A stretch of 64,000 nucleotides of DNA, taken from positions 736,001-800,000 of the forward strand of contig CAVSHR010000005.1 in the NCBI GenBank assembly GCA_963727625.1, written 5' to 3'. This document shows, one piece after another, positions 5,268-25,602 of this stretch; within the stretch, counting starts at the first letter, position 1; the number at the start of each line of letters is the position of its first letter. Below the pieces are notes generated by a model, which did no database searches, was not told the DNA's origin, and saw only the letters and a list, made by a program, of their open reading frames with translations. The translations under genes and the position numbers were made by a program. The DNA comes from an uncultured delta proteobacterium (lineage in GTDB: Bacteria; Desulfobacterota; Binatia; UBA9968).

Positions 5268-5298
5268 GTAGCCTTCAATAATCGCGCTCGCCTTAGGC

Positions 5299-7146
5299 TC
5301 ACGCACTCGTTTCACTTCGAAAAAGCGCCAGCGAGCGTGCCGGCAGCGTAAATCGCTGTGATGCGCCACCCTTGATTTCGTCGGGCAGCACACTGCCGGC
5401 GCCGCGCCATTCGGGCTCCGCCGAATCGATGATCTTGAGCCAGCGTCCCGCTGGTACGGACAGTTCGACGGACGCCGCGGCCAAATCCAAATTAGCGATC
5501 ATGAGCGCGCGATCGTCGCCGCTCCGGCGCTGTACCAGCAACAATTTTGTTTCTTCAACCGCCGTGACGTCCATGTTTTGCTTGGTCAACTCGGCGAGAG
5601 CGGGCGTGGTCTTTCGCAACCGGATCAGCTCGCGATAAAAATCCAACAAGACTTTATGCTCGCCGGTGTTCGCTAATTCATGACGCAGCTTCGCGCTGAC
5701 AAACGTCGCCTCGTCCTGCGGATCGGGGATCTCGCCTTGCCATTCGAAGCTGGCAAATTCCATGCGCCGGCCGCGCCGCACCGCTTCTATGAGCCCGGCA
5801 TCGGAATGGCTGACAAAGTAAGGAAACGGCGCCTGCTCACGGTATTCTTCGCCCATGAATAAAAGCGGAAGGTATGGCGACAAAATGACCAAACCAGCAG
5901 CAAGCTTGAGATTCTCGAAAGACACCGTCTCGGTCAAACGGTCGCCGCGCATGCGGTTGCCGACCTGATCATGGTTTTGCGCGAACACCACGAAGCGCTG
6001 CGCCGGCAGATCGCGCGACGAGCTGCCATGGCGATGGCGGCGAAACTCGGAGTACTCGCCCGAATAGGCGAAGCCTTCGCGATAGGCTTTGACCAGTTGG
6101 GCGATCTCACCGTAGTCGCGGTAGTAACCGTTTCTTTCGCCCGTGAGCAAAGCGCGCAGGCAATGATGAAAATCATCGTTCCACTGCGCATCCAGACCGT
6201 ATCCGCCGCGCTCGCGCTCGCGCACCAAACGAGCGTCGTTGGTCGCGCTTTCAGCGATCAGAAACATGCGCCGGTTGAGCCGCTCCGCTTCGGCATGAAC
6301 GGCAACGGCCAATTCTTCGAGAAAAGTAAACGGCGAATGGTCGAGAATCGCGTGCACCGCGTCGAGGCGCAACGCATCGACGTGAAAATCGACAAGCCAA
6401 TGAAGCGCATTTTGGATGAAAAACTGGCGCACCTCGTCGCTCTGCGGGCCGTCGAAATTGAGCGCCGCTCCCCACGGTGTCTGGTAGCGCTCGGTAAAAT
6501 ACGGTCCGAAGTCCGAGAGGTAATTGCCCTCCGGTCCGAGGTGGTTGTAGACCACGTCTAAAATCACGGCGAGACCGCGCTGGTGACAGGCGTCGATCAG
6601 CCTTTTTAAACCTACAGGTCCGCCGTAGGAATTTTGCGCGGCGAACGGCAACACGCCGTCGTAGCCCCAGTTTCGCGCGCCGGGAAATTGCGCCACCGGC
6701 ATGAGCTCTATCGCCGTGATGCCGACGTCCTTCAAATAATCGAGAAATGGAATAACCGCCTCGAAGGTGCCCGCCGGCGAAAAACAGCCGACATGAAGCT
6801 CATAAATAACGTAATTTTCGAGTGCGATGCCGGACCAGTCGGTATCGCTCCAGCGAAACTCATCTTCGAGGACGGCCGACGGTCCATGCACGCCCTGCGG
6901 TTGGAATCGCGATGCCGGATCGGGACGCTGCTTATCCGGCCCTAAATGGTAAAGATAGGGATCGCCCGGATGAACGTCTTCGACCACCGTTTCATAATAA
7001 CCGCGCCCGGTTCGTTCCAGCGGGATCAGCCGATCGGTTCTCAGCAGCCGCACGCCAAGCTGAGCGATCGACGGCGCCCAAACCCGAAAGCGGCACGTAT
7101 TCTTGCCCAGGTAATTAGCACCGAGTCTGTTCAGGATTTGCTCCAT
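5299..7146 (-). CDS. treZ: Malto-oligosyltrehalose trehalohydrolase
   Basis: FRVWAP, PDPASRFQPQGVHGPS, NWGYDGV, LRLDAVH, QNHDQVGNR, IPDPQDEATF motifs. Confidence 0.95.
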   Translation of the reverse strand: MEQILNRLGANYLGKNTCRFRVWAPSIAQLGVRLLRTDRLIPLERTGRGYYETVVEDVHPGDPYLYHLGPDKQRPDPASRFQPQGVHGPSAVLEDEFRWSDTDWSGIALENYVIYELHVGCFSPAGTFEAVIPFLDYLKDVGITAIELMPVAQFPGARNWGYDGVLPFAAQNSYGGPVGLKRLIDACHQRGLAVILDVVYNHLGPEGNYLSDFGPYFTERYQTPWGAALNFDGPQSDEVRQFFIQNALHWLVDFHVDALRLDAVHAILDHSPFTFLEELAVAVHAEAERLNRRMFLIAESATNDARLVRERERGGYGLDAQWNDDFHHCLRALLTGERNGYYRDYGEIAQLVKAYREGFAYSGEYSEFRRHRHGSSSRDLPAQRFVVFAQNHDQVGNRMRGDRLTETVSFENLKLAAGLVILSPYLPLLFMGEEYREQAPFPYFVSHSDAGLIEAVRRGRRMEFASFEWQGEIPDPQDEATFVSAKLRHELANTGEHKVLLDFYRELIRLRKTTPALAELTKQNMDVTAVEETKLLLVQRRSGDDRALMIANLDLAAASVELSVPAGRWLKIIDSAEPEWRGAGSVLPDEIKGGASQRFTLPARSLALFRSETSA

Positions 7147-7662: not shown

Positions 7663-9072
7663 ATGGATGACACGACTTCCAAGCCGATCGCCAGCATTTT
7701 GTACGTCGAAGACGATTTAGCCTCGGGACGGCTAGCGCATGCCATCGTCGAGCGCGAAGGTTATGCCGTCAAAGTAGTGTCAACCGGACAAGAGTTTTTG
7801 AAAGCTCTCGCAGAGAACAAACCGGATTTGATCCTGGTCGATCTCCACTTGCCCGACGCATCGGGATTGGATCTGCTGGCAAAATCGCGCCTTCGTTATC
7901 CGGAAGTGCCGGTGATCGTCGTGACCGCGTCCAACGCGGTGAGCGACGTGGTCAGTGCCCTCAAAGGCGGCGCCACCGATTATGTTACCAAGCCGGTGGA
8001 CCATCAACGGCTCATCGTCTCTTTGGCCAACGCGCTAAAATTGCTGCGCCATCAGCAAGACCTTGCCAAGCTCCGCTCCGAGCTCAATGAAACCTATCGG
8101 CTCGAACATATCATAGGCAGCGGGCCCGCCATGGAAAATGTTCGCCATATGATTCGTCAAGCAGCACCGAGCGATGCCACGGTGATGATCCTGGGCGAGA
8201 GCGGCACCGGAAAAGAGCTGGTTGCCCGGGCGCTGCATCACGCGAGCCCAAGAGCCGGCAAGCCCTTCGTCGACGTTAACTGCGCCGCGCTTACCGAGAC
8301 TTTGATCGAAAGCGAACTTTTCGGTCACGAACGGGGCGCCTTTACCAGCGCGATTTCCCGGCGCCGCGGTAAATTCGAACAGGCCAACAGCGGCTCGCTG
8401 TTTCTCGACGAGATCGGCGACATGCCGTTGTCGACCCAGGGGAAAATTTTGCGCGTCTTGCAGGAACGCAGCTTTCAGCGGGTCGGCGGCGAGGACCATA
8501 TCACGGTCAATGTGCGCGTGATTTGCGCGACCAACCGCAATATCGAGGAAGCGGTTCAAACCGGCGCGTTCCGAGACGATCTATTTTATCGCATCAACCT
8601 GTTCGCCATCGAAGTGCCGCCACTGCGCGAGCGCATCGCCGACATCCCCGAGCTGGCGCGCCATTTTTTGGCGGTGAGCAGCCGGTCCGGCAAATACCCT
8701 GCGCGCATTCTCTCGGATGCTGCCATTGCCGCGCTGTGCGAACATCGCTGGCCGGGAAACGTCCGCGAGCTGCAAAATACCATCGAGAGAGCGATGATGG
8801 TATGTCCCGACGAGGAGATTCAAGTCTCGCACCTGCCCGCGACGGTGCTGCAGCGTCCGCGCGGCAATTCCCAATCGGCGCAATCTGTTTCGTCCAAGCC
8901 AAGCCAAAATTTAGTTGAAGCGGTGGAAGCGTTCGAGCGCGCGAAGATCATCGAAGCCTTGGAAAAGTGCGATTGGAACAAAACTCAAGCGGCGCGCCAG
9001 CTCGGTGTCACCCGGCGGATTTTGTCATACAAAATGACTACCCTCGGCATCGAAAAAGCACCCACCGAGTAG
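7663..9072 (+). CDS. Sigma54-dependent response regulator (NtrC/AtoC family: REC-AAA+-Fis HTH)
   Basis: REC (YVEDD...LVDLHLPD...KP), GESGTGKE Walker A, ESELFGHERGAFTSA, LFLDEIGD, WPGNVRELQN, C-terminal NKTQAARQLGVTRRIL HTH. Confidence 0.93.
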   Translation: MDDTTSKPIASILYVEDDLASGRLAHAIVEREGYAVKVVSTGQEFLKALAENKPDLILVDLHLPDASGLDLLAKSRLRYPEVPVIVVTASNAVSDVVSALKGGATDYVTKPVDHQRLIVSLANALKLLRHQQDLAKLRSELNETYRLEHIIGSGPAMENVRHMIRQAAPSDATVMILGESGTGKELVARALHHASPRAGKPFVDVNCAALTETLIESELFGHERGAFTSAISRRRGKFEQANSGSLFLDEIGDMPLSTQGKILRVLQERSFQRVGGEDHITVNVRVICATNRNIEEAVQTGAFRDDLFYRINLFAIEVPPLRERIADIPELARHFLAVSSRSGKYPARILSDAAIAALCEHRWPGNVRELQNTIERAMMVCPDEEIQVSHLPATVLQRPRGNSQSAQSVSSKPSQNLVEAVEAFERAKIIEALEKCDWNKTQAARQLGVTRRILSYKMTTLGIEKAPTE

Positions 9073-9285: not shown

Positions 9286-9365
9286 TTTTGATCGTTTGGT
9301 CGTGATTTATAAGCCCGCCAATTCCTGTGCGTGGCTAGTGACAAGGGAGTCAGGCAAATCTCGAT

Positions 9366-11180
9366 ATGAAAAGACCGTTAGGTCGAAGTCTTAGCGCGTG
9401 CTTGGCGGACGCTTGGTTCGGCGGCACAACGCTCACACTCAAGCCGATTCGCGCGCTGATCGACGCCAGCGCAAAGCTGGGCAAAGGCGACCTGAGCACC
9501 CGTACCGCCATGGAACAGCTTCGTGGCGGGATCGGCCAATTAGCCGGCGCGATCGATCAGATGGCCGACGCGATTCAGGTTCGCGACGCCGAACGCATAA
9601 AATCCCAGCAAACCCGCGCCCTGCTTGCCGCCATCGTGGAATCTTCCAGTGACGCCATCATCAGCCGCACCCATGAGGGCATCTGCACGAGTTGGAACAA
9701 GGGCGCGCAAGATCTTTTCGGCTATAGCGCCGACGAAATAATCGGCAATTCACTTATGGTCCTGGTGCCCGAGGATCAGGTGGATCGGGTGCTGCAAAAC
9801 TTCGACATAGTCAAGCGCGGCAGTCCTATCGACTCATACGAAGCGGTGCGAATCAGAAAAAATGGTACCACAGTCGACGTTTCAGTTACCGTATCGGCCA
9901 TCATCGCCGAAGACGGCAGGGTTATCGGCGCCGCTTCGATCATGCGAGACATCAGCGAGCACAAGCGCTCCGAACGCGAGCTGCGCGCGCTGCACGAAAT
10001 TAATTTGGCGATCTCGTCGACCCTGGACCGGCAAGCGATATTGCAGATTTTACTGGAAAAGATCGAATTGCTGCTTCCCTACTCCGCCAGCCACATCAGA
10101 CTGGTCAATGAAGCCACTGGAAAACTCACGCCCGTGGCCTGCCGCAACTTGGACGAGACAGCGTGGAAGGCAGGCGACTCACCATCGGAGGGTTCGATTC
10201 TAAACTGGATCCTTCGGTCTCGACAGCCTGTAGTCTTGCGCAATTTGCACGCCGAAAAGCGGTTTCGGCGCCCGGAATTCTATCACCAGCAAGGGTTAGT
10301 TTCCTACCTCGGCCTGCCGTTGATGGTCAACGAAGAAGCAATCGGCGTGCTATCGCTTTTGACTAAAGAAGAACACGAGTTTACCCAGGACGAGATCCGC
10401 TTCGCCCAAACTTTGGCCAAGCAAGCGAGCATCGTCATATACCATTCCCAACTTTACGAGGAAACCAAAAGTCTCGCGGAAAAGCTGGAGGTGGGCGGCG
10501 AGCACATTCGAGCGCTGGCCAGTGGGCTGATACGCGCGCGCGACGAAGAAGCTAGACGCATCGCGAACATCTTGCATGACGAGTCCGGGCAGATCCTGGC
10601 CATGGTCTACATCTCGTTGGATGAGTTGGCGAAAGGACTCTCCGACTCCGACCGAGAACGGGTGCAAAGGATCAAGAATTTGTTGGATGAGATCGAGAAT
10701 CGGCTGCGCGATCTTTCCCACAACCTTCATCCCGCCCTGCTCGATCATTTGGGGTTGGCGCCCAGTCTCGAAAATCTCGCCGCTCAGATTTCCAAACGCT
10801 CTGGAATTCAGACCATGATTCATAGTCAATTGAACGGGCGGCTCCCGCCGCCGTTGGAACTGACCCTCTACCGCGTCCTCCAGGAAGCGATTAGCAACGC
10901 GGTCCGCCACTCGCGCGGGAAAACGATCCGGGTCCGACTCTTGGAAAACAACGGGCTGGTCCAGTGCGCGATTCAGGACGATGGCATCGGCTTTCAGTCC
11001 GCCAGTCTCGCCCACGGCAGCAAACCGATGACCCGCGGCCTCGGCATTCCCGGCATGCGCGAGCGAATCGAAGCCATAGGCGGAACCTTTCAGATCCTTT
11101 CCAGCCCGGGCGAAGGAACCAAATTGTATCTATCCATTCCACTGGAGAAACCCAATGACGCAGCGAATCCTGATTGCTGA
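9366..11180 (+). CDS. Sensor histidine kinase, HAMP-PAS-GAF-HisKA_3-HATPase (NarX/UhpB type)
   Basis: HAMP-like N-terminus, PAS (AIVESSSDAIIS...SWNKGAQ), GAF, EEARRIANILHDESGQ, YRVLQEAISNAVRH, DDGIGF, GLGIPGMRER. Confidence 0.9.
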   Translation: MKRPLGRSLSACLADAWFGGTTLTLKPIRALIDASAKLGKGDLSTRTAMEQLRGGIGQLAGAIDQMADAIQVRDAERIKSQQTRALLAAIVESSSDAIISRTHEGICTSWNKGAQDLFGYSADEIIGNSLMVLVPEDQVDRVLQNFDIVKRGSPIDSYEAVRIRKNGTTVDVSVTVSAIIAEDGRVIGAASIMRDISEHKRSERELRALHEINLAISSTLDRQAILQILLEKIELLLPYSASHIRLVNEATGKLTPVACRNLDETAWKAGDSPSEGSILNWILRSRQPVVLRNLHAEKRFRRPEFYHQQGLVSYLGLPLMVNEEAIGVLSLLTKEEHEFTQDEIRFAQTLAKQASIVIYHSQLYEETKSLAEKLEVGGEHIRALASGLIRARDEEARRIANILHDESGQILAMVYISLDELAKGLSDSDRERVQRIKNLLDEIENRLRDLSHNLHPALLDHLGLAPSLENLAAQISKRSGIQTMIHSQLNGRLPPPLELTLYRVLQEAISNAVRHSRGKTIRVRLLENNGLVQCAIQDDGIGFQSASLAHGSKPMTRGLGIPGMRERIEAIGGTFQILSSPGEGTKLYLSIPLEKPNDAANPDC

Positions 11181-11787
11181 TGATCACACCATTGTCAGAG
11201 ACGGCCTGAAGGGCGTTTTGCTCGGCCAAGGTTTCGAGATCGCGGCCGAGGCATCAAACGGACGCGAAGCCGTGGACTTGAGCCGCAAGCTGCGTCCGCA
11301 CATCGCCATCTTGGACATTGCGATGCCGCTTCTCAACGGTATCGACGCGGCGCGGGAAATCGCCGGCGCCTGCCCGAACACGAAAACTATTCTACTGACC
11401 ATGTACAAAGAGAGGCAGTTCATTCTCGAGGCCTTGCGCGCCGGCATCAAAGGCTACGTGCTAAAAACCCAGGCCGCCGCCGATCTCGTCAACGCGATCC
11501 ACGCGGCGCTGGCAGGCGAAACTTATCTCAGCCCGGGGGTTTCCGACAGCATCGTGCAGGCCGCGCTGACCAAGGACTCGCCGGCCCTCGACCCGTTGAC
11601 TCCACGGGAACGGGAAGTTTTGCAGTTGATTGCCGAAGGGAAAAGCAACAAGGAGGTTTCCCAGCAGCTCGGGATGAGCGTAAAAACCGTCGAATCCCAT
11701 CGGCGCAACGTGATGACCAAACTCGATATTCATGAAACCGCAGGCTTGGTTAGACACGCGATCAAAATCGGTCTCATCCCTCCATAA
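11155..11787 (+). CDS. NarL/FixJ-family DNA-binding response regulator
   Basis: ILIADDH, LDIAMP, LTPREREVLQLIAEGKSNKE LuxR HTH. Overlaps the upstream HisKA_3 kinase, so is the probable cognate. Confidence 0.93.
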   Translation: MTQRILIADDHTIVRDGLKGVLLGQGFEIAAEASNGREAVDLSRKLRPHIAILDIAMPLLNGIDAAREIAGACPNTKTILLTMYKERQFILEALRAGIKGYVLKTQAAADLVNAIHAALAGETYLSPGVSDSIVQAALTKDSPALDPLTPREREVLQLIAEGKSNKEVSQQLGMSVKTVESHRRNVMTKLDIHETAGLVRHAIKIGLIPP

Positions 11788-11936
11788 TCCCCGCCATCAA
11801 TCCCCGATCCGCTCCATCCGTGGGGTGTTTTATTGCAAGATCTAAGGTTTTTACCCGATATCACTCCCCTAACCGATAGTCTACGCTTTTTATCGGCGGA
11901 TCGGCACTGGGGCCAATCATCGCCAGCGAGGGAGTT

Positions 11937-12734
11937 ATGACCGCGACGATAGTGACCGTGGATGACGATCGGAGTTTCCGCGATATTGTGAGGGGACTGC
12001 TGCGCCAAGACGCCGGAATCACGTTAATCGGCGAAGCAGAGAACGGCGAGGAAGCCGTGCGCCAGACGCGCGCGCTTCATCCGGACGTGGTTCTGATGGA
12101 CCTTACCATGCCGCGGGTCAACGGCTTCGATGCGACTCGGAGAATCAAAGCGTACCAGCCGCAAACTAGAGTCATCATCCTGACTGTTCATGCCGAATAC
12201 GACTATGAACAAGCGGCGCTCGGCAACGGTGCCGACGCCTTTATCGCCAAAAAGCGGCTGAGTTCGGATCTGCTGCCGACCATTCACGCCTTGACGGAGC
12301 CGAAGCGACCCGAATCGGCAGCGCAGGATGAAGACTTGGATGCCATCCTCTTGATCGATAACGACAGCGAGTTTCGCGGTCTGACCGCGGCTTACCTTCG
12401 CGCCAACTTGAATACGGTGATCGAAGAATGCGCCAGCAACGAAGCCCAGACCCTGACGTTGCCCGCCGGCTTGAAGCCCAGAGTCGTTGTGGTCGATGCT
12501 GCGCACGACAACGCGAAATTTCTGAACGGCCTGCGCGGGCGTTTCCCGGTTTTTGGCATTATCGCGCTTACCTCCGGCAACTCTGCAAGATTCAAAGAAT
12601 CCGCCCTGGCGCCGGGGGCCGATGCCTGGGTCGCCAGGAATCGAATCACCATCGACCTTATTCCGGCAATCAGGGCATTGATCCCCTTTCCGTCGAAATT
12701 GGACCGGGCTCTCTATATAGCGGACGAGCTTTAA
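11937..12734 (+). CDS. Tandem-receiver response regulator (canonical REC + divergent REC, no HTH)
   Basis: First REC VDDD...LMDLTMP...LT...IAK; second ILLIDND...VVVVD...LT...WVAR. GGGAG SD before ATG. Confidence 0.85.
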   Translation: MTATIVTVDDDRSFRDIVRGLLRQDAGITLIGEAENGEEAVRQTRALHPDVVLMDLTMPRVNGFDATRRIKAYQPQTRVIILTVHAEYDYEQAALGNGADAFIAKKRLSSDLLPTIHALTEPKRPESAAQDEDLDAILLIDNDSEFRGLTAAYLRANLNTVIEECASNEAQTLTLPAGLKPRVVVVDAAHDNAKFLNGLRGRFPVFGIIALTSGNSARFKESALAPGADAWVARNRITIDLIPAIRALIPFPSKLDRALYIADEL

Positions 12735-12980
12735 ATTTATCGTCAACGGCAGTTGCGAAGGGAAATAAATTGCTTACGGGCAAAACAAACGTTAGCGATT
12801 TTTTTGGATCGGCTCAGCAATCTGCTTGTCAAACACGGAAGGAAAAATTGGCCGGCCATCACCGCGCTCGCTTTTATTCTACGCGGCGCGGCCGTCTGAC
12901 TGAAACAATCGATGTCGTCCAAGCCGCTACCGGAAAATCAGCGACGCGGTGGCAGCGGCGCAAGAGCTTGAAAATCGACG

Positions 12981-15107
<2,127 letters not shown>

Positions 15108-15145
15108 ATTTTGATTATCGCGGAACCCGAGCTCGGAGGGCAATT

Positions 15146-15538
15146 ATGGCGCCGGAGTCTGTCTTGATCGTCGACGACAATGTGGTTAACACAAAACTCG
15201 TTCGCGTCCTGTTGGCGGGAGAAGGCTACGAGGTGCGCACGGCCGGCGACGCCGACGAAGCATTGCAAGTTCTGCACCGGTTTCATCCGGGGCTGATTCT
15301 CATGGATATCCAATTGCCGGGCATCGACGGCATCGAGCTGATTCGACGCCTGAAAGCGGAGCCTGCGACGCGCGACATCCCGGTCATCGCACTGACGGCC
15401 TACGCGATGAAAGGCGATAGGGAACGCATCATCGCCGTCGGTTGCGCCGGCTATATTTCTAAGCCGATCGACACGCGGGCTTTGCCCATTTTCATCAAGG
15501 GATATTTGCAAAGAACGGCACCCAAAAGCGGCCATTAG
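15146..15538 (+). CDS. Single-domain response regulator (DivK/CheY-like)
   Basis: GGAGG SD then MAPESVLIVDDN; LILMDIQLPGIDG, IPVIALTAYAMKGDRE, YISKPID. Confidence 0.9.
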   Translation: MAPESVLIVDDNVVNTKLVRVLLAGEGYEVRTAGDADEALQVLHRFHPGLILMDIQLPGIDGIELIRRLKAEPATRDIPVIALTAYAMKGDRERIIAVGCAGYISKPIDTRALPIFIKGYLQRTAPKSGH

Positions 15539-15971
15539 TAGGCATTCGAGCAACCCTCGCCGCAGCACAGGACGCGCAATCGGTCGTAAAACTCCTCTCA
15601 GCGTACTCAACCTAGCTCCAGATCATAGACAAGAGGGTACTTGCGGCGCGCCTATCCAAGACTGAGCTCATTGCTGGACCTACCCGCGGGATCGGGTCTG
15701 GAACCGAAATTGCTCAAAAATCAGATGGTCCGAAAATGAGACTTGGTACGACGAGAAAAATTAAGACAATTTTGGCAATGCCGGGAAATTGTTCGCCCGT
15801 AATGGGACTTTGGCGTAGGTTACAAAATGGCTGGTTGCGAGCGAAATTTTGAAACATTGTCCAGCGCCGACGCCAACTGTCCAGTGGATTGCGTGAATTT
15901 ATCAAGAACCTCTATCGAGCCGATGACTACCGGCCTCGCAAACGCGGCCGCTGGAGGAGACGGCTAGCGCC

Positions 15972-18806
15972 TTGCCAATTCTCGCTCAAGATCGGCGCGC
16001 CGCCGCTTACCTCGACTACAGCATCCTCGCTTCGTCGGTGTTGTCGGCGGCCCTGGGACTTTTGAGCACCGCCGAATGGTACAGCGGCAACACGGCTCTG
16101 CTAAAAATTCTTGCCGGGGCGGTCGCCCTGCAACCCATCACGGCCATCGGCTTCATACTCTGCGGCGCGGCCCTGTTTACGGCGCAACGCGGCGCGCGTG
16201 GGGCTACGTTGCTAATCGGCGCCGGCACCGGTTTGTTGGGATTAGTGACTATCTCGGAGTATCTCATCGGCTTCGATCTGCGCATCAACGAAGCTCTCTT
16301 GGGAATAACCTCCGGTCCGGTAGCCGCCGACCTCGCCCGAATGGCGCCATCGACGGCACTATGTTTTCTTTTTGCCGGAACGGCATTCTCCCTCGCATCC
16401 CTTGGCGAAAACGCGCCAATCCAGCCGATGTTCGTCGGTTTGCTGGGCGGCGTCCTTTTCAGTATCGGAGCGATCGCCTTTGCCGGCTACTTGACCGGCC
16501 TCAGCGCCACCTATGAATGGGATCAGCTCAACGGCATGGCACTGCCCACAGCAATGGGGTTTGTAACCGTGGGAGGCGGTTTGGTCGCCCTCGGCTGGCG
16601 CCATGGAAGCGGTGTGGCAAACAGGTCGCTGCCCTGGCTGCCTCTATTCGTGGGCGTTAGCGGCCTGACGGCGACGCTGATCCTCTGGCATGCTCTTCTC
16701 GCCTCGGAGGATTCGAAAATCCACCAGCTCATCCGCAACCAGGAAATCAATGTCCATAATCGAATCACGTTGAACATCAACTCGACCCTGTTTGAGTTGA
16801 TGCGCAGCGCCACGCGTTGGCAACGCTTCAATCTCGAGTCCCCCGCGCGAATCCAAGACGAGGCGGGACTGCTCATTCAGTGGCTGCGCGGCTTGCGCGC
16901 CATCGGCTGGCTCGACGAAAATAACCGCTTACGCTGGATTATCCCAAAAGGAGAATACCCAACGCTGGTCGGCGCCGATCTGAGCGCTGATCCGCATAAT
17001 CAGGCGGCGCTGGAAACCGCGCGCGCCGAAGGAATGGCACTGATCGCGGCGCCCGATGGAACGCCGGGCAGCGATCGATATTTCATCTACGCGCCGATCT
17101 CCGACAAACGGAAATCTCGCGGCTTCATGATCGGCATTTTCCATGCCCAAGAATTGTTCGACCAGCTAATCGACGATGAAGCTTTCATCGGTTACTCGAT
17201 CGAATTGTTTGACGGCGGTCAGGAAATCTATCAGCGCAGAGGCTCCGACTCGCAATACCGTGCTTGGGCCGAGGAGTCGTTGATATCGCTTGGTAAGATA
17301 ACCTGGACCGTCCGGGTTTGGGCCAAGCCGTCCACAATGGCCGCCATGGACTCCAACGCGGATCTGCTGGCGCTGCTGATCGGCCTGTTGGCCACCGCGC
17401 TAATTACCGCCGTCACCTATCTAGCCCAGAGCGCGCGGCGGCGTGCCCGGCAAGCCCAGGCAGCCAACGACCGGTTGGAAAGCGAGATCGCCGAGCGCCG
17501 GCGCGCCCAAGAGCAAATCCAATTACAGTTGGAACGAATATCGATCCTGCGGGAAATCAATCTGGCGGCGACGTCGACTCTAAGCCTCCAGCCGATGTTG
17601 AATTTGCTGCTGGAGACCATCCAGCGCCTGCTGCCTTACAGCGCACTGCTGGTTTGGCTCAAGGACCCGGTCAGCGGCGACTGGAAGCGCGCCGCCTGCC
17701 GCAACCTGGATGAAGAGGACTGGATGGGCAGAGCGCTCCCAGCGGTCCCGAAACTCGTGCTCGCCGCCGCGGAATCCAAGAATGCCGTCGTCATCAGCGA
17801 TATCCGGAGCGACCCGAGAACCCTCGATCGCGCCTTTTATCAACGGAACGGGTTGATTTCCTACCTCGGCGTCCCGCTGCTGACCAAAGGCGAGACCTTG
17901 GGGTTGCTGGTCTTTCTGACCCGCGCGGCGCACGAATTCACCGAAGACGAAGTCCAATTTCTCTCTTCGGTGGCGAGCCAAGCGGCCGTGGCCATACACA
18001 ACTCGCAGCTCTACGAGAAAATCCAGACACAAGCGCGTGCGCTCGAAGAAGCCAACAAGCTTCAGGCAGATTTTACCGCGATGATCGCCCATGATTTACG
18101 CTCGCCGCTCTCTAACGTCATCGGCATCGCCGAGATGATGGACCAGGGGCTTTTCGGACCGCTTTCGGAAGAACAAAAGAACTGGCTTGGCCGCATGCGC
18201 AATAACGCCAAGAATCTCGTCAGCTTGGTGAGCGACTTTCTCGACGTATCCAAGCTCGAAAGCGGGCGTATCGAACTGCATCGGGCTTTAACCGACGTCG
18301 CCGACCTTGCCTGCGCGACGGTCGCAAACTATAAGTCTGTCGCGGCAGCCAAGATGATCGCCTTGACCTACAGCGGCGACCCGTCGATCCCCCATATAGA
18401 GGTCGACGCGCGGCGGCTCGATCAGGTGATCACCAATTTGATCACCAACGCGATCAAGTTCACCAATGAAGGCGGCAGGATTCAAGTGCGCGTCCTACCC
18501 GGCCAAGAAAAAGAAATAAGGATCGAAATCCAGGACAGCGGCGTCGGCATTCCCCGCGCCGAAATCGCCAAGCTATTTCAAAAGTACCGCCAGGCGGATA
18601 ACGCGCGCGCTCTCGCCGATAAGGGCACGGGATTGGGCTTGGTGATCTGCAAGATGATCGTCGAAGCCCACGGCGGGAGAATTTGGATCGACAGCGACGA
18701 GGGGAAAGGCACCACTTTCTCATTTACTTTGCCGATCGGGAACAACCTGCAAGCTATTCCCGAAGGGGAGAGCCTCAACCCAGCCAGTGAAGAACTAAGG
18801 TCTTAA
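15972..18806 (+). CDS. Membrane sensor histidine kinase: multi-TM N-terminus, CHASE-like periplasmic domain, GAF, HisKA, HATPase
   Basis: GGAGGAG SD with TTG start; ~7 hydrophobic segments; periplasmic region ending WTVRVW plus TM; GAF; AHDLRSPL; NAIKFT; GTGLGL. Confidence 0.88.
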   Translation: MPILAQDRRAAAYLDYSILASSVLSAALGLLSTAEWYSGNTALLKILAGAVALQPITAIGFILCGAALFTAQRGARGATLLIGAGTGLLGLVTISEYLIGFDLRINEALLGITSGPVAADLARMAPSTALCFLFAGTAFSLASLGENAPIQPMFVGLLGGVLFSIGAIAFAGYLTGLSATYEWDQLNGMALPTAMGFVTVGGGLVALGWRHGSGVANRSLPWLPLFVGVSGLTATLILWHALLASEDSKIHQLIRNQEINVHNRITLNINSTLFELMRSATRWQRFNLESPARIQDEAGLLIQWLRGLRAIGWLDENNRLRWIIPKGEYPTLVGADLSADPHNQAALETARAEGMALIAAPDGTPGSDRYFIYAPISDKRKSRGFMIGIFHAQELFDQLIDDEAFIGYSIELFDGGQEIYQRRGSDSQYRAWAEESLISLGKITWTVRVWAKPSTMAAMDSNADLLALLIGLLATALITAVTYLAQSARRRARQAQAANDRLESEIAERRRAQEQIQLQLERISILREINLAATSTLSLQPMLNLLLETIQRLLPYSALLVWLKDPVSGDWKRAACRNLDEEDWMGRALPAVPKLVLAAAESKNAVVISDIRSDPRTLDRAFYQRNGLISYLGVPLLTKGETLGLLVFLTRAAHEFTEDEVQFLSSVASQAAVAIHNSQLYEKIQTQARALEEANKLQADFTAMIAHDLRSPLSNVIGIAEMMDQGLFGPLSEEQKNWLGRMRNNAKNLVSLVSDFLDVSKLESGRIELHRALTDVADLACATVANYKSVAAAKMIALTYSGDPSIPHIEVDARRLDQVITNLITNAIKFTNEGGRIQVRVLPGQEKEIRIEIQDSGVGIPRAEIAKLFQKYRQADNARALADKGTGLGLVICKMIVEAHGGRIWIDSDEGKGTTFSFTLPIGNNLQAIPEGESLNPASEELRS

Positions 18807-18807
18807 C

Positions 18808-21800
18808 ATGAAGATTCTGGTCGCCGACGACGATTCGATCAACCGCAAATACCTCCATGCTCTGCTCAGCCATGAAGGACATACGGTTATCGAATGCGAC
18901 AATGGCCTGGCCACCCTCGCCTGGCTTGAAAAAAACCCCTGCGACGCAGTGATTTCAGATGTGCTGATGCCGCAAATGGACGGCTACCGGCTATGCTATG
19001 AAATTCGCACGAATAAAAATCTCAAAAACACTCCGGTCATTCTCTACTCCGCAACTTATCTCTCGGCCGCCGATGAGAAAGCGGCGATGGCGATGGGTGC
19101 CGATAAATTTATGCGCAAACCCGCGCTGCCGGAACAGATCCTCGAAGCACTCAACGAGGCGATCGAGAAGCCCCGCACTGAGCATTCGGAAGCGCCGCCA
19201 GAAAAACCTGGAGACATGCCCGCGCTGCGGGAGTACAGCGAATCGCTGGTGCGGAAACTCGAGGAAACCATCATCGAGCTCTCGGTCGCCAACGCCGCAT
19301 TGGCGGAAAACGAGCGCCGCCGGCGCGCGATCATCGAGTCCGAACCCGAGTGCGTCAAGATTCTTGCTCGTGACGGAACTCTTTTGGAAATGAACCCCGC
19401 CGGCCTGCGTATGTTCGAAGCCAATTCAGCGGAGCCGGTGATCGGAAAAAAGGTCTACCCGTTGATCGTTCCAGAGCACCGTCGCTCCTTTCAGGAACTC
19501 ACCGAAGCCGTGTTTCGGGGCGAATCGGGTACCCTTGAATTCGAGATCCTCGGACTCAAAGGCACGCGCCGCTGGCTTGATACCCATACCGCGCCCCTGC
19601 GCAATTCCAATAGCGAGATCGTCGCCGCCCTCGGTATTACGCGCGATATCACCGAACAAAAGCATAACGCAACGCTCTTGAGCGGCCAGATGCGCGTTCT
19701 CGAAATGATCGCCCGGGGTGCGCCCCTGCCCGCGACGCTCGACGCGTTACTGCGTGTGATCGAAGAGCAATCCAGCGACATGCTCTGCTCGATTCTTTTG
19801 CTCGACGCCGAAGGCAAACACCTGCGGTATGGCGCTGCGCCGCGGCTTCCGGAGCGTTACCAGCAGGCCATCGACGGCGCCGCTATCGGCGAAGGCACCG
19901 GCTCCTGCGGTAGCGCAGTCTATCGGCGGGAACAGGTCATCGTCGAAGACATCACGAGCGATCCGTTGTGGCAGGACTGCCGGCAGATTGCGCTGGCCCA
20001 TGGTCTGCGCGCCTGCTGGTCGACACCGATCTTCGACGCCCAGCAGCGGGTGCTCGGCAGCTTCGCGATGTATTTTCATGCGCCGCGCCGGCCCGAGGAA
20101 CAGTACTCAAGACTGACAGACATCGCCACCCGCATCGCCGCCATCGCGATTAGCAAACAACGCGAAGAAGACGCGCTGCGCGAAAGTGAATCTCGCTTCC
20201 GCGAGATGGCGGATAGTGCCCCTGTGATGATCTGGATTACGAGCGCGGACGGCTCCTGCACCTACCTCAATAAGCAATGGCAGGATTTTACCGGCCAAAC
20301 CGATGAAACCGGCTTGGGTTCAGGATGGCTGGATGCTCTGCATCCGAATGACCGCGAGCGTGCCGGCCGGGAATTCGCGGACGCAAATCGCCGCCATGAA
20401 TCATTTCGTATGGAATTTCGATTGCGCCGGCGTGAAGGCGAGCATCGTTGGGTGATCGACTCGGCGCAGCCGCGCCTGAGTGAGCGCGGTGAATTTCTCG
20501 GTTATATCGGATCGGTTTTCGATATCAGTGAACGCAAGCAGGCGGAAGACGAGCGGCAACGAAGCCTCAATCGGGTTCGCGCCCTGCATGAAATCAATCT
20601 GGCCATCACGTCAACGATGAACCGGCAAAGCCAGCTCGATATGCTGCTGGAAAAGATCGAGAGCTTCTTCGCCTTCCCGATTGTTTCATCGATGCGTTTG
20701 TTCCGACCAGAAACGGGACGGCTCGAGTGCCTCGCCCAGCGCGGAGTCATAGTAAGCGAATGGCTTAGCCGCGAGCCGGGGCGAACCCTCCACCGGGCAT
20801 TGCAGGTCGTCCAGAATAAGGCGCCCGTGATCGTCCCCGATATCCACAGTGATGTCCACGCAAAAGATCGACCCATGCCCGCGAGTTTCGGTCTAGTCTC
20901 CTACGCCGGCGTGCCGCTGATCGCGCGCGATCAAGTCATCGGCGTGCTCGGCGTCTATACCCAGGAGCTCCACGAGTTCAGCGCCGAAGAGATCGAATTC
21001 CTGACGACCTTGGCGGGACAGGCCGCAGTCGCCCTCGAAAACGCGCAGCTCTATGAGCAAACCGTACGGCGCCGGCGCGAGGCGGAAGCGCTGGCGAAAA
21101 TCGCCCGCTCGCTGACCGAGACCCTCGACATCAGCGCCATAGGCGAACGAGTCGTCAGCAGCGTAATGGAATTGTTTAACGTAAAGGGCGCGACGCTGCG
21201 GCTGCGCCAGCCCGACGGCTCTTTGATTCGTCTCGCCGCGGCGGGCGATGTATTTTCACAGATCCCAGGCGGTGCGGTCATACCGCCGGCAACAGGCATC
21301 GCCGGCCTCGCCTTCGCTGAACGCAAGCCCATTGCGTCCGCTGACATGCTGAACGACCCCGCCATTCAGGTAAGCGAGGCGATGCGTGATTACATCCGCT
21401 CGAGCGGCAACGGTTCGATCCTCGCTGCGCCGCTGAGCGCCCGTGAGAATCTCATCGGCATACTTTCCCTCACCGATACGGTTGGGCGCAGCTATATGGA
21501 CAACGAAGTAGCGCTGTTGCAAAGTTTCGCCGATCAAGTCGCGCTGGCGCTTTACAACGCGCAGCTCTATAAGGAATCCGAAAACCATCTCAAGCAGGTG
21601 CAAGCGCTGCGCGAGATCGAACGAGCGATTACCTCCACTTTGGATCTCGATTCCGTTCTCCACCTATTGTTAGAGAAAATTGATGTATTTCTGCCGTCCT
21701 CGGCGGTCACGACCATCCGCCTATTCAATCACAACACCGGAAAGTTTGATGACACCGCTTGTCGCAACCTTGACGAGAAAGCATGGCGCGGCAGGGCCAG

Positions 21801-23988
21801 GCGCATGAAGAGTACGATTTCGGAACAGATTGCCCAAACAAAACGTCCCGTGATCATTCCAAAGATTCAAGAAATCGCGGAAGGGGACAGGTTTTCTTTC
21901 TACCGCCAACACGGCCTCGTCAGCTATCTCGGGGTGCCGTTAATTGGTAGGGATGACGTGCTTGGGATCCTCGGTGTTTACACCACCGCCTTTCACGAAT
22001 TTACCGAACAAGAAATCGACATATTCCTGTCCGCCGGGAGTCAAGCCGCCATCGCGATCAACAATGCGCGCCTTTTCGACGACATTACGCTTGCGAAGAA
22101 TCAACTGGAGGTCACAAATCAGTCGCTGGACCGCTCCCTCATGCACCTCGATAGTCTTTATGCGACCCTCGCCCCGTTGACTCCCGGCGCCACCCATCAG
22201 GAAATTCTGAACGTGGTCATCGGCCGGCTCATCGAAACCACCGGCGCCGACGCCGGCCTGATCCGGGTCTGGGATGCTGAGGCGAAGAACTACCGGATCG
22301 TCAGTCACAGCGGCTACCCGAAGCCTTTCCTGACCCGCTTAGAGAAAATCCCGCCAGGAGGCGCCGTCGACTGGGTGGCTCAGCACTGCGAACCGATTCT
22401 GGCGCCGGACATCGCCGCCGAGGAGCGCTTTCAAGGTAAATCTCAGATGGAGTACGGTTTTCGTTCGAGCGCTATGTTGCCTTTGATCACTCAGGATGAC
22501 GTGCGCGGTGTTATACAATTGTCGAGTAAACAACTGGGCCGATTCGACCAAGAGCATCGAGACCATCTCGTGGCGATAGCCCGGCAATTGAGCATCGCCT
22601 TAGAAAACCGCCGGCTTTTCGACGACCTTAAGTCATCCCGAGACGATCTCGAAAACGCCAACGCGGCGTTGACCGATAGCAATCGCATGCTGACTGCCCT
22701 GCACACGGTCGCGTCCGTGTCCAGCCAGTCGTTGAAACTAGAGCTGATCCTAAACGCAGCGATTCAAAAAATCGCCGAAATCTTTAATTTCGATGAAACC
22801 CTCGTTCATCTTTACGACAGGAACAAAGATGCTTTCATCCTCCGAGCGGCTTTCGTGGACGATCCGAAACTCTTCTCCTCGACGCGGTCATTCAAAATGG
22901 GCGACAGCGTTGTCGGAGCCGTCGCTCAGTCCGGCGAAAAAATGATTTTTTTCGATGCGCCGAACGATCCCCGGTACCGGGCACTCAGCCGTACGAGCAC
23001 GATGAGCCAAGACGGTTACCGTTTTTTGGCGGTGTTCCCGATCAGGGGAAAAATGGCGAGTCTCGGTACCATCGACTGTATAAATACGCGCCCCCGCTCT
23101 CTCTCAACAACCGAGGTTCAATTGCTCGAAGCGATCTCGGACCAGTTGGCCGTCGCCATTGAGAACAGCTGGCTTTATGAAGACGTGCGGTCAAAAGTCG
23201 ATGAGCTCCAATTCAAGACCATCGAGCTTGAACGCGCCAATAAAGTCAAAGACGAATTTCTCGGCATGATTTCCCACGAGCTGCGCACCCCGATCAATGT
23301 CATCATGGGCTATACCTCGCTGTTCAAAGACGGCGTGCTCGGAGCAATTGGGCCACAGCAGGAAAGCGCCCTGGCGAAAATCGCCCGCGAAACCAAGGAA
23401 CTGTTGGAAATGGTCAATACGCTCCTGTATGCGACCACGCTGGAAACTGAACAGGTCACGATCGAAGCCCAGGAGTTCAGTCTGGATTCTTTGTTGGCCG
23501 AATTGCGCGCCAACTATGCGGTGACGGCACCGCAGCAGGTGATCATGGAATGGCGCTACCCTGCCGACTTGCCAAACCTCAACACCGATCGGCTAAAGCT
23601 CAAGCAGGTCCTCGACAATTTAATCGGCAACGCAATCAAGTTCACCGAAGAAGGCAGCGTGACCGTCGCCGCGCGGGTCGCCGATGGCAACGAGCGTGGC
23701 GCAAAGAGCATAGCGCCTGGCTCTGAGCCCTCAGCGCTAAGCCCTCAGCCCCCGTTTCTTGAAATCACCGTAACCGACACCGGCGTCGGCATGCCCAGCG
23801 ATAAACTCAGCACGATCTTTGAAAAATTTTACCAGGCGGACAGCTCGGGGACGCGCTGCTTCGGCGGCGTCGGCTTGGGCCTTTATATCGCAAAGCATTT
23901 TACCAATCTGCTCGGCGGGGAACTCAGCGTCACCAGTACCGAGGGCGTCGGGTCGGCGTTCACGCTGACGATTCCCTTGGGATCTTAA
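18808..23988 (+). CDS. Giant cytoplasmic histidine kinase REC-PAS-GAF-PAS-(GAF)x5-HisKA-HATPase
   Basis: 1726 aa. N-terminal REC (ILVADDD, SDVLMP), two PAS/PAC, six GAF-like repeats (five closing with Q/L-A-x-A-I/L-x-N), SHELRTPIN, NAIKFT, GVGLGL. Confidence 0.92.
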   Translation: MKILVADDDSINRKYLHALLSHEGHTVIECDNGLATLAWLEKNPCDAVISDVLMPQMDGYRLCYEIRTNKNLKNTPVILYSATYLSAADEKAAMAMGADKFMRKPALPEQILEALNEAIEKPRTEHSEAPPEKPGDMPALREYSESLVRKLEETIIELSVANAALAENERRRRAIIESEPECVKILARDGTLLEMNPAGLRMFEANSAEPVIGKKVYPLIVPEHRRSFQELTEAVFRGESGTLEFEILGLKGTRRWLDTHTAPLRNSNSEIVAALGITRDITEQKHNATLLSGQMRVLEMIARGAPLPATLDALLRVIEEQSSDMLCSILLLDAEGKHLRYGAAPRLPERYQQAIDGAAIGEGTGSCGSAVYRREQVIVEDITSDPLWQDCRQIALAHGLRACWSTPIFDAQQRVLGSFAMYFHAPRRPEEQYSRLTDIATRIAAIAISKQREEDALRESESRFREMADSAPVMIWITSADGSCTYLNKQWQDFTGQTDETGLGSGWLDALHPNDRERAGREFADANRRHESFRMEFRLRRREGEHRWVIDSAQPRLSERGEFLGYIGSVFDISERKQAEDERQRSLNRVRALHEINLAITSTMNRQSQLDMLLEKIESFFAFPIVSSMRLFRPETGRLECLAQRGVIVSEWLSREPGRTLHRALQVVQNKAPVIVPDIHSDVHAKDRPMPASFGLVSYAGVPLIARDQVIGVLGVYTQELHEFSAEEIEFLTTLAGQAAVALENAQLYEQTVRRRREAEALAKIARSLTETLDISAIGERVVSSVMELFNVKGATLRLRQPDGSLIRLAAAGDVFSQIPGGAVIPPATGIAGLAFAERKPIASADMLNDPAIQVSEAMRDYIRSSGNGSILAAPLSARENLIGILSLTDTVGRSYMDNEVALLQSFADQVALALYNAQLYKESENHLKQVQALREIERAITSTLDLDSVLHLLLEKIDVFLPSSAVTTIRLFNHNTGKFDDTACRNLDEKAWRGRARRMKSTISEQIAQTKRPVIIPKIQEIAEGDRFSFYRQHGLVSYLGVPLIGRDDVLGILGVYTTAFHEFTEQEIDIFLSAGSQAAIAINNARLFDDITLAKNQLEVTNQSLDRSLMHLDSLYATLAPLTPGATHQEILNVVIGRLIETTGADAGLIRVWDAEAKNYRIVSHSGYPKPFLTRLEKIPPGGAVDWVAQHCEPILAPDIAAEERFQGKSQMEYGFRSSAMLPLITQDDVRGVIQLSSKQLGRFDQEHRDHLVAIARQLSIALENRRLFDDLKSSRDDLENANAALTDSNRMLTALHTVASVSSQSLKLELILNAAIQKIAEIFNFDETLVHLYDRNKDAFILRAAFVDDPKLFSSTRSFKMGDSVVGAVAQSGEKMIFFDAPNDPRYRALSRTSTMSQDGYRFLAVFPIRGKMASLGTIDCINTRPRSLSTTEVQLLEAISDQLAVAIENSWLYEDVRSKVDELQFKTIELERANKVKDEFLGMISHELRTPINVIMGYTSLFKDGVLGAIGPQQESALAKIARETKELLEMVNTLLYATTLETEQVTIEAQEFSLDSLLAELRANYAVTAPQQVIMEWRYPADLPNLNTDRLKLKQVLDNLIGNAIKFTEEGSVTVAARVADGNERGAKSIAPGSEPSALSPQPPFLEITVTDTGVGMPSDKLSTIFEKFYQADSSGTRCFGGVGLGLYIAKHFTNLLGGELSVTSTEGVGSAFTLTIPLGS
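23692..23754 (+). repeat. Nine degenerate tandem heptamers (GnnCnnn) inserted in-frame in the HATPase domain
   Basis: gagcgtg gcgcaaa gagcata gcgcctg gctctga gccctca gcgctaa gccctca gcccccg; 63 nt = 21 codons. Confidence 0.6.
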
Positions 23989-24198: not shown

Positions 24199-25602
24199 TT
24201 GTTTGAAGTAGCCAAAAGCACTTCTCGTGCGATCGGAACCACAAATCGGAACTCAGGGCAATTTACCGTGATGATCGAATCTTTATTTCACTGGCCCATG
24301 AGAAATGGCAGCCCCAAGTCAAAACCGAGCGCGGCCAACTCAGCCGGTTCGACGAGCATTGACGGCCGGTTACGGCACGCAGATCGAAAAGACATCACCG
24401 CTGTCCAATGGTTGGTTGCGATCGCCGTTTCTTATTTCGTCCTCACCACAAACGATCTCAATCTAACCGAACCGCTGCCCGCACTTTTAATTTTAATTTC
24501 CCTCGTCTCCGCGGTCCTGCTGCAGCGCCTCCCCGAGGCCTTATTTGAGAAACGGATAGTCGAGCCCGGACTTCTCCTTGTCGACTCGTTACTCATCTTT
24601 TCAGCGATTACGACGTCGCAGCAGATACCCTGGGACCTGCTGATCCTGTTTTTCTTCTGTGTTTTTCTCGCGGCCATAGGCGAGAACCTGGTACAAATCG
24701 GCGTGGGATCCGTCCTGCTGAGCCTAGTCTTCGTGATGTTTGTTTCCCCAAACGCGGCGGAGTTTTCGACTGTCCACCCGAATTTTCTTTTCCGCGTGCC
24801 ATTCATGTTCGGCATCTCGATCTTTTACGGCTATCTGGTCAGTCAAATAAAAAAACAGAAGAAACGGGCGGAACGGATGGAAGAAGCTTCGAGATTGAAA
24901 CGGCAACTGGTCTGCGCCCTGGCGCATGACATCAAAACGCCGCTCAACGTCATCTTCGGCCACGCCGAGCTGCTTGCCGATCCGTCCGGCGGGTACTCGA
25001 CTCCGGCGGAAAGAAAAAATTCATTCAACTGCATTCGAGATAATATCGACCGGATCGTTAAGTTGATCACGGATTTTTTGGACGTTGCAAAATTGGAAAC
25101 GGCGAATCCGCAAGACGCGCTACACTTGGTTCAGTTGAATGACATCGTCCAAGATGTGGTCCGAGAGCAAATGATCATGGCTCGCGAGAAAAACCTCAGC
25201 CTGCTGCTTCAACTTGACGCCGAGCTTGAACCGGTCTTCGGCGACCCCGATCAATTGCAACGCGCGTTAAGCAATTTAGTCAGCAACGCGATTAAGTTTA
25301 CCCCAGGCGGCGGGCGCATCACCCTGTCATCTCAGATGATCGAGAAAAAAGTCGTGATGCGGGTGAGTGACACCGGGATAGGCATTCCCACAGACGAGGT
25401 CCCAAGTTTGTTCTCTGAATTCCGGCGGCTCAAAGGAGCCGAGAACATCGAGGGAACCGGACTGGGGCTTTTCATCGTCAAAACCATCGTCGAGGCTCAT
25501 GGCGGCAGCGTCTCAATGGAAAGCGAAATGGGCCGAGGGACGACTTTTACAATCCAGCTGCCACCGGCGTCGAAAGCCGTGGCACTCAGGCAAGCAGCCT
25601 AG
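24199..25602 (+). CDS. Histidine kinase with 6-TM integral membrane sensor domain
   Basis: Six hydrophobic helices, then LAHDIKTPLN, NAIKFT, DTGIGI, GTGLGL. The true start may be the ATG at 24271 or 24298. Confidence 0.88.
   Translation: MFEVAKSTSRAIGTTNRNSGQFTVMIESLFHWPMRNGSPKSKPSAANSAGSTSIDGRLRHADRKDITAVQWLVAIAVSYFVLTTNDLNLTEPLPALLILISLVSAVLLQRLPEALFEKRIVEPGLLLVDSLLIFSAITTSQQIPWDLLILFFFCVFLAAIGENLVQIGVGSVLLSLVFVMFVSPNAAEFSTVHPNFLFRVPFMFGISIFYGYLVSQIKKQKKRAERMEEASRLKRQLVCALAHDIKTPLNVIFGHAELLADPSGGYSTPAERKNSFNCIRDNIDRIVKLITDFLDVAKLETANPQDALHLVQLNDIVQDVVREQMIMAREKNLSLLLQLDAELEPVFGDPDQLQRALSNLVSNAIKFTPGGGRITLSSQMIEKKVVMRVSDTGIGIPTDEVPSLFSEFRRLKGAENIEGTGLGLFIVKTIVEAHGGSVSMESEMGRGTTFTIQLPPASKAVALRQAA

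Follow-up and report, generated by a model that had tools for sequence, protein, structure and literature searches.

Among GAF domains of solved structure, those of PtsP (Enzyme I-Ntr) and Lcd1 offer the best comparison for four GAF domains found in three histidine kinases, K1, K2 and K3, that are encoded in a 64,000-nucleotide stretch of DNA (the window) from an uncultured delta proteobacterium (GTDB lineage Desulfobacterota; Binatia; UBA9968; GenBank assembly GCA_963727625.1, contig CAVSHR010000005.1, positions 736,001 to 800,000, forward strand). K1 and K2 contribute one domain each while K3 contributes two, K3b and K3d. In K1, K2 and K3d, a cysteine and a tryptophan are set within the motif ACRNLDExxW. 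The four domains form one distinct, uncurated subfamily of GAF_2.

The PtsP GAF domains (PDB: 3ci6 and 3trc) are of the best-matching type among solved structures, with profile E-values of 3.7e-11 and 2.4e-10 and TM-scores of 0.75–0.78. They share with the window domains a GAF_2 layout with an N-terminal helix; however, they read ASKGLN or ATQGLN in place of ACRNLD, lack the tryptophan, are 19–22% identical and have no histidine kinase attached. The top match was the cAMP-binding GAF domain of Lcd1 (PDB: 5w10, profile E: 3.2e-13, Foldseek E: 7.3e-11, TM-score: 0.77). Its ligand pocket is described as being closed by the β2 and β3 strands together with helices (PMC11800159). In contrast to the window domains, Lcd1 has IAEGIQFNHI at the position of the motif, and it retains GEGIAG, a segment missing from K2 and K3d. 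There is no indication that the window GAF domains bind cAMP.

Other described GAF domains are of interest for their cysteines. The GAF domain of the CSK/Hik2 kinase is described as having a single conserved cysteine, C19, that contributes to a [3Fe-4S] redox cofactor (PMC6949291). By that description, C19 is near the protein N-terminus, whereas the window cysteine is located mid-domain at the end of β2. In the Methanosarcina sensor kinase MsmS (MA4561), the GAF domain is described as carrying a c-type heme (PMC8396549). The likeness between MsmS and the window domains is known at the level of the GAF fold. Molitor and coworkers are said to have found in 2013 that the MsmS heme is linked through a GAF cysteine, at what we take to be the phytochrome chromophore site and not β2. 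The DXCF cyanobacteriochrome and phytochrome GAF domains also share the fold and have sensory cysteines, but the window domains are without a canonical Cys-His, DXCF or DIP motif. These are the motifs of bilin-binding GAF domains, which have either a chromophore-binding cysteine (Cys-His) situated in the GAF helix or a DXCF second cysteine. Lastly, the GAF domain of free methionine-R-sulfoxide reductase (fRMsr) has several catalytic or resolving cysteines. The window domain differs in having a single cysteine, and its Foldseek matches to this group (PDB: 3mmh and 4mmn) are only 12–16% identical.

The cysteine-tryptophan motif in three histidine kinases

The initial annotation of the window reported ACRNLDExxW in three different kinases, and translation places the motif exactly at all three sites, each on the forward strand. 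From Pfam analysis, K1 (9366..11180, forward strand, 604 aa) has a HAMP-PAS-GAF-HisKA_3-HATPase_c architecture. Its GAF domain (9951..10481, aa. 196–372) presents the motif as ACRNLDETAW (10137..10166), located at the end of strand β2 and in the short helix that follows according to the modeled secondary structure. K2 (15972..18806, forward strand, 944 aa) is a membrane kinase with a CHASE-GAF-HisKA-HATPase_c architecture, in which the GAF domain (17508..18053) contains ACRNLDEEDW (17694..17723). K3 (18808..23988, forward strand, 1726 aa) is organized as REC-PAS-GAF-PAS-GAFx5-HisKA-HATPase_c and contains ACRNLDEKAW (21757..21786) in its GAF domain d (21571..22116). A fourth copy, GAF domain b of K3 (20548..21084), reads ECLAQRGVIVSEW. 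As the initial annotation had noted, this copy keeps the tryptophan; in the equivalent segment, AQRGVIVSEW (20734..20763), a glutamine (20737–20739) aligns to the cysteine column. Each of the three motif-bearing domains also contains the blocks EI-xx-A-xx-STL, FY-xxx-GL-[VI]-SYLG-[LV]-PL and HEFT, again as first noted.

With the Pfam models PF01590 and PF13185 (GAF_2), for which the cut-offs are 22.4 and 28.6 bits, K1 scored 68.2–68.4 bits and K2 scored 53.3–68.8 bits; the six GAF stretches of K3 scored 300–319 bits in total. A six-frame scan of the whole 6.6-Mb genome for the looser pattern CRN[LIFVM][DNSEPTG] returned 120 matches, of which three contain ACRNLDE; these are the K1, K2 and K3 sites. 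A fourth in-frame ACRNL string (GACRNLGFSLEQL) occurs at approximately position 26939 of the window (C5:762939), in the PAS-rich part of the kinase encoded at 25800–28913. It lies outside any subfamily GAF domain and is taken as a chance match.

The window domains K2, K3b and K3d are 38–39% identical to the K1 GAF domain. Among the seven identical codons of the motif, five differ at synonymous sites (GCC/GCC/GCT, TGC/TGC/TGT, TTG/CTG/CTT, GAC/GAT/GAC and GAG/GAA/GAG). The divergence of flanks and synonymous sites described in the initial annotation is thus borne out, and the low identity together with the codon differences point to conserved homology as opposed to chance or a recent copy. In a phylogenetic tree of the subfamily, the nearest row to K1 is L004, the nearest to K2 is L002, which reads AACRNLDETNW, and the nearest to K3d is L031, all three from other genomes. 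Since the closest relative of each domain is in another genome, K1, K2 and K3d are old paralogues. A spread of the motif among neighboring genes by recent duplication or gene conversion might be suggested by the location of the three genes within 12 kb and by the absence of ACRNLDE elsewhere in the genome. It is given next to no credence, however, as the identity, the codons and the tree together refute it. Chance may also be set aside: a given 7-mer is expected approximately 0.01 times per 13 million six-frame residues, and the motif occurs in homologous domains.

A side observation concerns the length of K1. The K1 protein begins within the HAMP region and has neither a Cache domain nor the first membrane segment, with its frame open only from position 9342. 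Its homologues (57–74% identity over the GAF region) are approximately 880–890 aa long, and one of these, P0170, has a dCache-HAMP-PAS-GAF arrangement. On account of the limited open frame and the longer homologues, K1 is taken as a shortened paralogue that is probably soluble.

A discrete subfamily of GAF_2

A hidden Markov model (HMM) of the subfamily was built from the four window domains. Against all open reading frames (ORFs) of the genome, this model made 75 domain matches in 23 ORFs. The four model copies scored 278–290 bits (K1: 285.8, K2: 278.3, K3b: 286.0, K3d: 290.3) and were followed by domains at 206.6, 157.5, 148.5, 138.0 and 93.5 bits; the remaining GAF domains scored no higher than 70.2 bits. 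In these nine top domains the cysteine column reads C, C, C, Q, C, L, A, H and A. The lowest of the nine, at 93.5 bits, is from a 410-aa ORF outside the window (C4:647352-648581, minus strand) and reads SARNIDEDAW, with alanine for cysteine; extra residues are inserted around SYLGxPL, and the copy may be decaying.

A profile search was also made against 1.84 billion representative proteins without a word index, and all GAF domains of the best 150 proteins were rescored. The per-domain scores are bimodal, with 34 domains at 120 bits or more, approximately 930 generic GAF domains below 100 bits, and almost none at 100–160 bits. The distribution keeps this shape when the matches from a word-index protein search are added, so that members lie above approximately 150 bits and generic domains below approximately 100. 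A comparison of the 34 members with 928 generic GAF domains identified the columns that set the subfamily apart. The cysteine is present in 82% of members and 2% of generic domains, the asparagine two residues after it in 88% and 8%, and the motif tryptophan in 97% and 8%. Toward the carboxy terminus, the histidine of the HEF block is found in 88% of members (13% of generic domains) and a threonine four residues ahead of it in 91% (8%). One Phe, Leu, Pro and Lys column each is likewise specific to the subfamily. The resulting signature is A-C-R-N-[LIV]-D-E-x-x-W, L-V-S-Y-L-G-x-P-L and T-x-x-x-H-x-F. A sister clade (125–162 bits) that has lost the motif entirely reads AAKGFDTKER or AARGFK at the equivalent positions (L062, L070–L075, L078, L079 and others); it is widespread among genomes of the genus and also occurs in the window's own (C5:603296-605203).

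No model specific to the subfamily was found in Pfam or NCBIfam. The NCBIfam matches scored 14–48 bits to the GAF parts of NifA, PtsP, FhlA and NorR, for which the cut-offs are 476–830 bits. The NifA, FhlA and PtsP equivalog models were all missed, the best score being 48 bits to NifA against a cut-off of 528.85, with PtsP at 32.5–34.6 bits against 583. The NorR equivalog (NF003451) gave 15.6–23.4 bits on three of the four window domains (cut-off 476) and no match on K3d. By these scores, the NCBIfam matches reflect generic GAF likeness only. The ESM Atlas likewise returned only generic GAF clusters, at 0.91–0.93. A text search of a literature library found no occurrence of the strings ACRNLDE, ACRNIDE, CRNLDE or ACRNVDE, and found no publication linking Binatota with a histidine kinase. 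As suggested in the initial annotation, the domain class is uncharacterized; its HMM scores are discrete, and neither a specific curated model nor a close solved structure was found.

Predicted fold and position of the motif

An AlphaFold2 model of the K1 GAF domain (pLDDT = 85.3, pTM = 0.82) has five strands with flanking helices in a standard GAF arrangement. The cysteine is found at the C-terminal end of the strand formed by residues 59–65 (β2) and the tryptophan in a short helix formed by residues 69–73. A Foldseek search with this model made 429 matches in the PDB at E ≤ 0.001; among the matches listed, all are GAF folds, and the best are the Lcd1 and PtsP structures described above. In PDB sequence searches, ACRNLD was aligned to ASKGLN and ATQGLN of the PtsP GAF domains and to (I)AEGIQ of Lcd1. 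Therefore, the motif is the form that the canonical A-x-x-G-L segment takes in this lineage, and in this alignment the cysteine occupies a slot that is held by serine or threonine in PtsP.

Conservation of the cysteine and the tryptophan

The initial annotation regarded the cysteine as a conserved thiol. Its conservation was assessed from three samples that were not chosen by the motif, although the genomes overlap among them. Sample A consisted of domains from the representative proteins at 120 bits or more (n = 34, including the four window domains) and contained 28 Cys, 5 Ser and 1 Gln, with the tryptophan in 33. Sample B was drawn from 41 genomes of the window's order at 150 bits or more (n = 76) and contained 52 Cys, 10 Ala, 7 Ser, 2 Gln, 2 His, 2 Arg and 1 Leu, with the tryptophan in 65. 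Sample C was drawn from species-representative genomes at 150 bits or more (n = 85), gathered by peptide patterns outside of the motif, and contained 69 Cys, 8 Ser, 4 Phe, 2 Ala, 1 Gly and 1 Thr, with the tryptophan in 83. When the threshold of sample B was lowered to 90 bits, it held 105 domains, nine from the window's own genome; the cysteine was present in 55 of these and in 52 of the 69 that keep the tryptophan. Sample B leaves out three matches of genome G005 as well as matches below approximately 114 bits outside of the fetched loci. G005, which is flagged as unpublished, is counted in the genus tally given below and is represented in sample B by one row (L010, Cys); without it, the cysteine count is 51 of 75. 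A further sample from the word-index search had the cysteine in 143 of 158 domains, but its candidates were picked by shared five-residue words and are biased toward the motif, so it was not used as an estimate.

From these samples, the tryptophan and not the cysteine is the near-invariant residue, and the cysteine is the usual but replaceable occupant of its position. The thiol is not strictly conserved: cysteine is the majority state (68–82%), but Ser, Ala, Phe, Gln, His, Gly, Thr, Leu and Arg also occur in its column. In two of the samples, the motif cysteine is the only cysteine of the domain in 41 of 55 and 51 of 69 cysteine-bearing members.

A tree of 135 subfamily domains and 6 generic GAF domains was calculated with FastTree after the motif columns were removed; 49 of its 136 inner forks are unsupported. 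It requires a minimum of 19 switches of the cysteine column to or from Cys and a minimum of 8 changes for the tryptophan. A direct comparison is provided by locus L005 (493-3531, minus strand), which is collinear with K3 with 56% identity over 986 residues. In the slot corresponding to K3b, L005 reads LACHNLDAAEW and K3 reads LAQRGVIVSEW; thus a single orthologous position holds Cys in one protein and Gln in the other, while the kinase is otherwise conserved. The initial annotation had named variability of the cysteine among homologues as evidence against its proposal, and in part this is what the samples, the tree and the K3/L005 slot reveal. Since the replacements are frequent, independent, sometimes bulky and also found in orthologous slots, the alignments do not support an obligatory thiol mechanism. 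With respect to the two subfamily slots of this kinase, L005 has Cys-Trp motifs in both, while in the window genome and in L031 the first slot has changed to AQRG...W.

A putative ligand site and its alternatives

Taken as a whole, the reading that we lean toward is that of a discrete, lineage-restricted GAF_2 subfamily in which the cysteine is replaceable and thiol chemistry is not the essential mechanism. The three motifs are carried by three anciently diverged paralogous copies of one subfamily, of which a fourth copy has lost the cysteine, and the subfamily has expanded in the genus by duplication and domain shuffling. In these domains A-C-R-N-[LIV]-D-E-x-x-W stands where ordinary GAF_2 domains have the canonical A-[ST]-x-G-L-x-x-E. 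The subfamily GAF domain is a cytoplasmic module placed between input domains (HAMP-PAS, CHASE, or PAS/GAF arrays) and the kinase core. Like other kinase GAF domains, it would be expected to act as a dimeric sensing and transmitting module, with a long C-terminal helix that would run into the helix of the dimerization and histidine phosphotransfer (DHp) domain, or into the next domain, and pass a ligand or conformational input to the kinase. The tryptophan, its Arg, Asn, Asp and Glu neighbors and the T-x-x-x-H-x-F block may shape a subfamily-specific site for a putative small ligand, in which one position would favor cysteine but also admit other residues. Ligand binding, transmission through a dimer and this role of the tryptophan are what we infer; the subfamily itself, its distribution, its residue frequencies and the secondary-structure position of the motif are what the analysis shows.

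A number of points weigh against this reading. Small-ligand binding is putative for every member of the subfamily. At 68–85%, the cysteine is far above its 2% level in generic GAF domains and is retained at 38% overall identity, and therefore something favors it beyond chance. It is also the sole cysteine in most members, as in one-cysteine sensors. The AlphaFold2 model of the K1 GAF domain was built from an alignment of only four sequences. K2 and K3d have lost the G-E-G-[IL]-x-G segment that is found in Lcd1 and PtsP, so that a pocket may be changed or missing. Covariation was analyzed by a mean-field method (1366 sequences, Meff 1257), which couples the cysteine column only to the Trp, Asp and Glu of its own motif (0.84, rank 72 among all pairs), which may be a mere subfamily signal, and the analysis is contradictory with respect to the strand register and the faces of the neighboring Ala and Arg.

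If the single cysteine were instead the sensing element, either as a redox, persulfide or electrophile switch or by ligating a metal, an Fe-S cluster, a heme or some other cofactor, the paralogues with Ser, Ala or Gln would be insensitive or tuned differently. The cysteine enrichment over generic GAF domains and its solitary occurrence in most members would fit such a sensor, as would the conservation of possible co-ligands nearby (Asp 76%, Glu 79%, His 88%), and there is precedent for a one-cysteine GAF domain in CSK/Hik2, where the [3Fe-4S] cluster is described as depending on C19 (PMC6949291). The cysteine, however, is replaced in 15–32% of members with at least 19 changes on the tree, and bulky Phe, Tyr, His and Gln residues are tolerated at its position. 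In the giant kinase K3, the window has Gln in a slot that is filled by Cys in the ortholog from another species. There is no partner cysteine for a disulfide inside the domain, the tryptophan is conserved more strongly, and no cofactor-type family was matched in Pfam or NCBIfam. A thiol sensor is a possible but doubtful explanation, while a modulatory role for the thiol in those members that have it is possible, given a cysteine frequency far above background and its solitary occurrence. A still more tentative proposal is that the Cys-Trp(-His) group could be the reactive center of a new one-cysteine class of sensory GAF domain, responsive to redox state, persulfide or electrophiles, or bound to a non-tetrapyrrole cofactor or metal. 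If true, up to a dozen kinases per genome would read the same cue in this soil lineage, and copies that naturally have Ser, Ala or Gln, among them the second GAF domain of the giant kinase, would be built-in insensitive variants.

On the opposite side, the domain may bind nothing and serve as a purely structural or transmitter module, in which a tryptophan-centered motif stabilizes the packing of β2 against the helix or a domain joint in GAF arrays, with the cysteine as a neutral small residue fixed by descent. This would agree with the alignment of the cysteine to a position where the canonical GAF_2 motif has Ser or Thr, with Ser and Ala as its commonest replacements, with the frequent occurrence of the domain in tandem arrays of two to three copies and with the loss of the GEGxxG-like segment in K2 and K3d. 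It is nonetheless a possible but doubtful account, as the subfamily has a polar block of its own (Arg, Asn, Asp, Glu, His, Thr) that is conserved beyond the usual needs of packing, and the presence of Phe, Gln, His and Arg at the cysteine position argues against a tightly packed core. A bilin- or heme-binding GAF domain, with the cysteine acting like the DXCF second cysteine of a cyanobacteriochrome (CBCR) or like the heme-linking cysteine of MsmS, has very little to recommend it. CBCR and phytochrome GAF domains (PDB: 6oap and 8w26) are among the Foldseek matches, and the cysteine is located shortly past β2, in what we take to be roughly the site of the DXCF region. Against this, the solved phytochrome and CBCR chains align only to profile positions 110–177, a C-terminal third that is without cysteine, and K1, K2 and K3d have one cysteine each, with neither a Cys-His pair nor a DXCF second cysteine. 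The cysteine is also not invariant. The heme oxygenase family PF01126 had no match in the 98.45%-complete genome in a search confined to that heme-degrading family, with three of 14 control genomes positive. From the lack of a Cys-His pair, the limited phytochrome alignments and the heme oxygenase search, a bilin or heme reading is unlikely; the initial annotation had likewise recognized no phytochrome-type signature. GAF domains of the DosS/DosT type have a proximal histidine ligand and a heme pocket; DosS and DosT made partial alignments that, depending on the search, covered between one-third and three-fifths of the query at its C-terminal end, at E-values of 1e-4 to 1e-5.

At this stage the finding is a family-level annotation of a domain subfamily that is real but probably ordinary, and not the demonstration of a new mechanism. 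For most GAF domains the ligand is not known; a subfamily that is cleanly separable, uncurated, sharp in its signature and both restricted to and multiplied in a single lineage of uncultured bacteria from soil and groundwater provides a defined target for ligand discovery. The natural Cys, Ser, Ala and Gln variants, some of which are in orthologous slots, make the thiol hypothesis cheap to test.

Distribution and kinase architectures

The subfamily was identified in all 24 other genomes of the window's genus, with 2–12 matches each (E ≤ 1e-20). At the same threshold, two other families of the order were represented, one by 3 of 5 genomes and the other by 1 of 11. None of a further 200 genomes, sampled evenly across the remainder of the phylum, had a match at E ≤ 1e-45; up to 17 candidates were scored per genome in this search, which recovered all six matches of the window's own genome at that threshold. 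The best 80 loci from named records are distributed over 43 assemblies, being metagenome-assembled genomes from soil and groundwater. Their submitter labels are Candidatus Binatia (37), a generic 'Deltaproteobacteria' (30), Syntrophobacter-type and a few others. The subfamily is lineage-restricted and has multiplied through duplication and shuffling.

The reuse of the domain across kinase types that was described in the initial annotation extends from the window kinases to their relatives, as judged from Pfam architectures. Further arrangements include REC-GAFx3-HisKA, dCache-HAMP-PAS-GAF-HATPase and PAS-GAFx3-PAS-HisKA_3. Tandem arrays of two or three subfamily copies are frequent (e.g., P0015, P0019 and P0034).

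Genomic neighborhood

The three kinases belong to a signaling island (7663–31733) that was found by Pfam to contain seven histidine kinase and four response regulator genes. In addition to K1, K2 and K3, histidine kinases are encoded at 12981–15107 (hybrid), 24199–25602, 25800–28913 and 29970–31733 (minus strand). The response regulators are a sigma-54 activator (7663–9072), a REC-GerE protein of the NarL/LuxR type (11155..11787, forward strand) and two others (11937–12734 and 15104–15538). The REC-GerE gene overlaps the stop codon of K1 and its product is the likely partner of this HisKA_3 kinase. At 187–7146, on the minus strand, there are three adjacent genes of the alpha-amylase family, one of which has CBM_48 and isoamylase C-terminal domains by Pfam; together they look like a glycogen/trehalose-type cluster. 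The response regulator encoded at 11937–12734 has its receiver domain at residues 5–113; for a further stretch of approximately 150 residues, Pfam gave no match at E ≤ 0.001.

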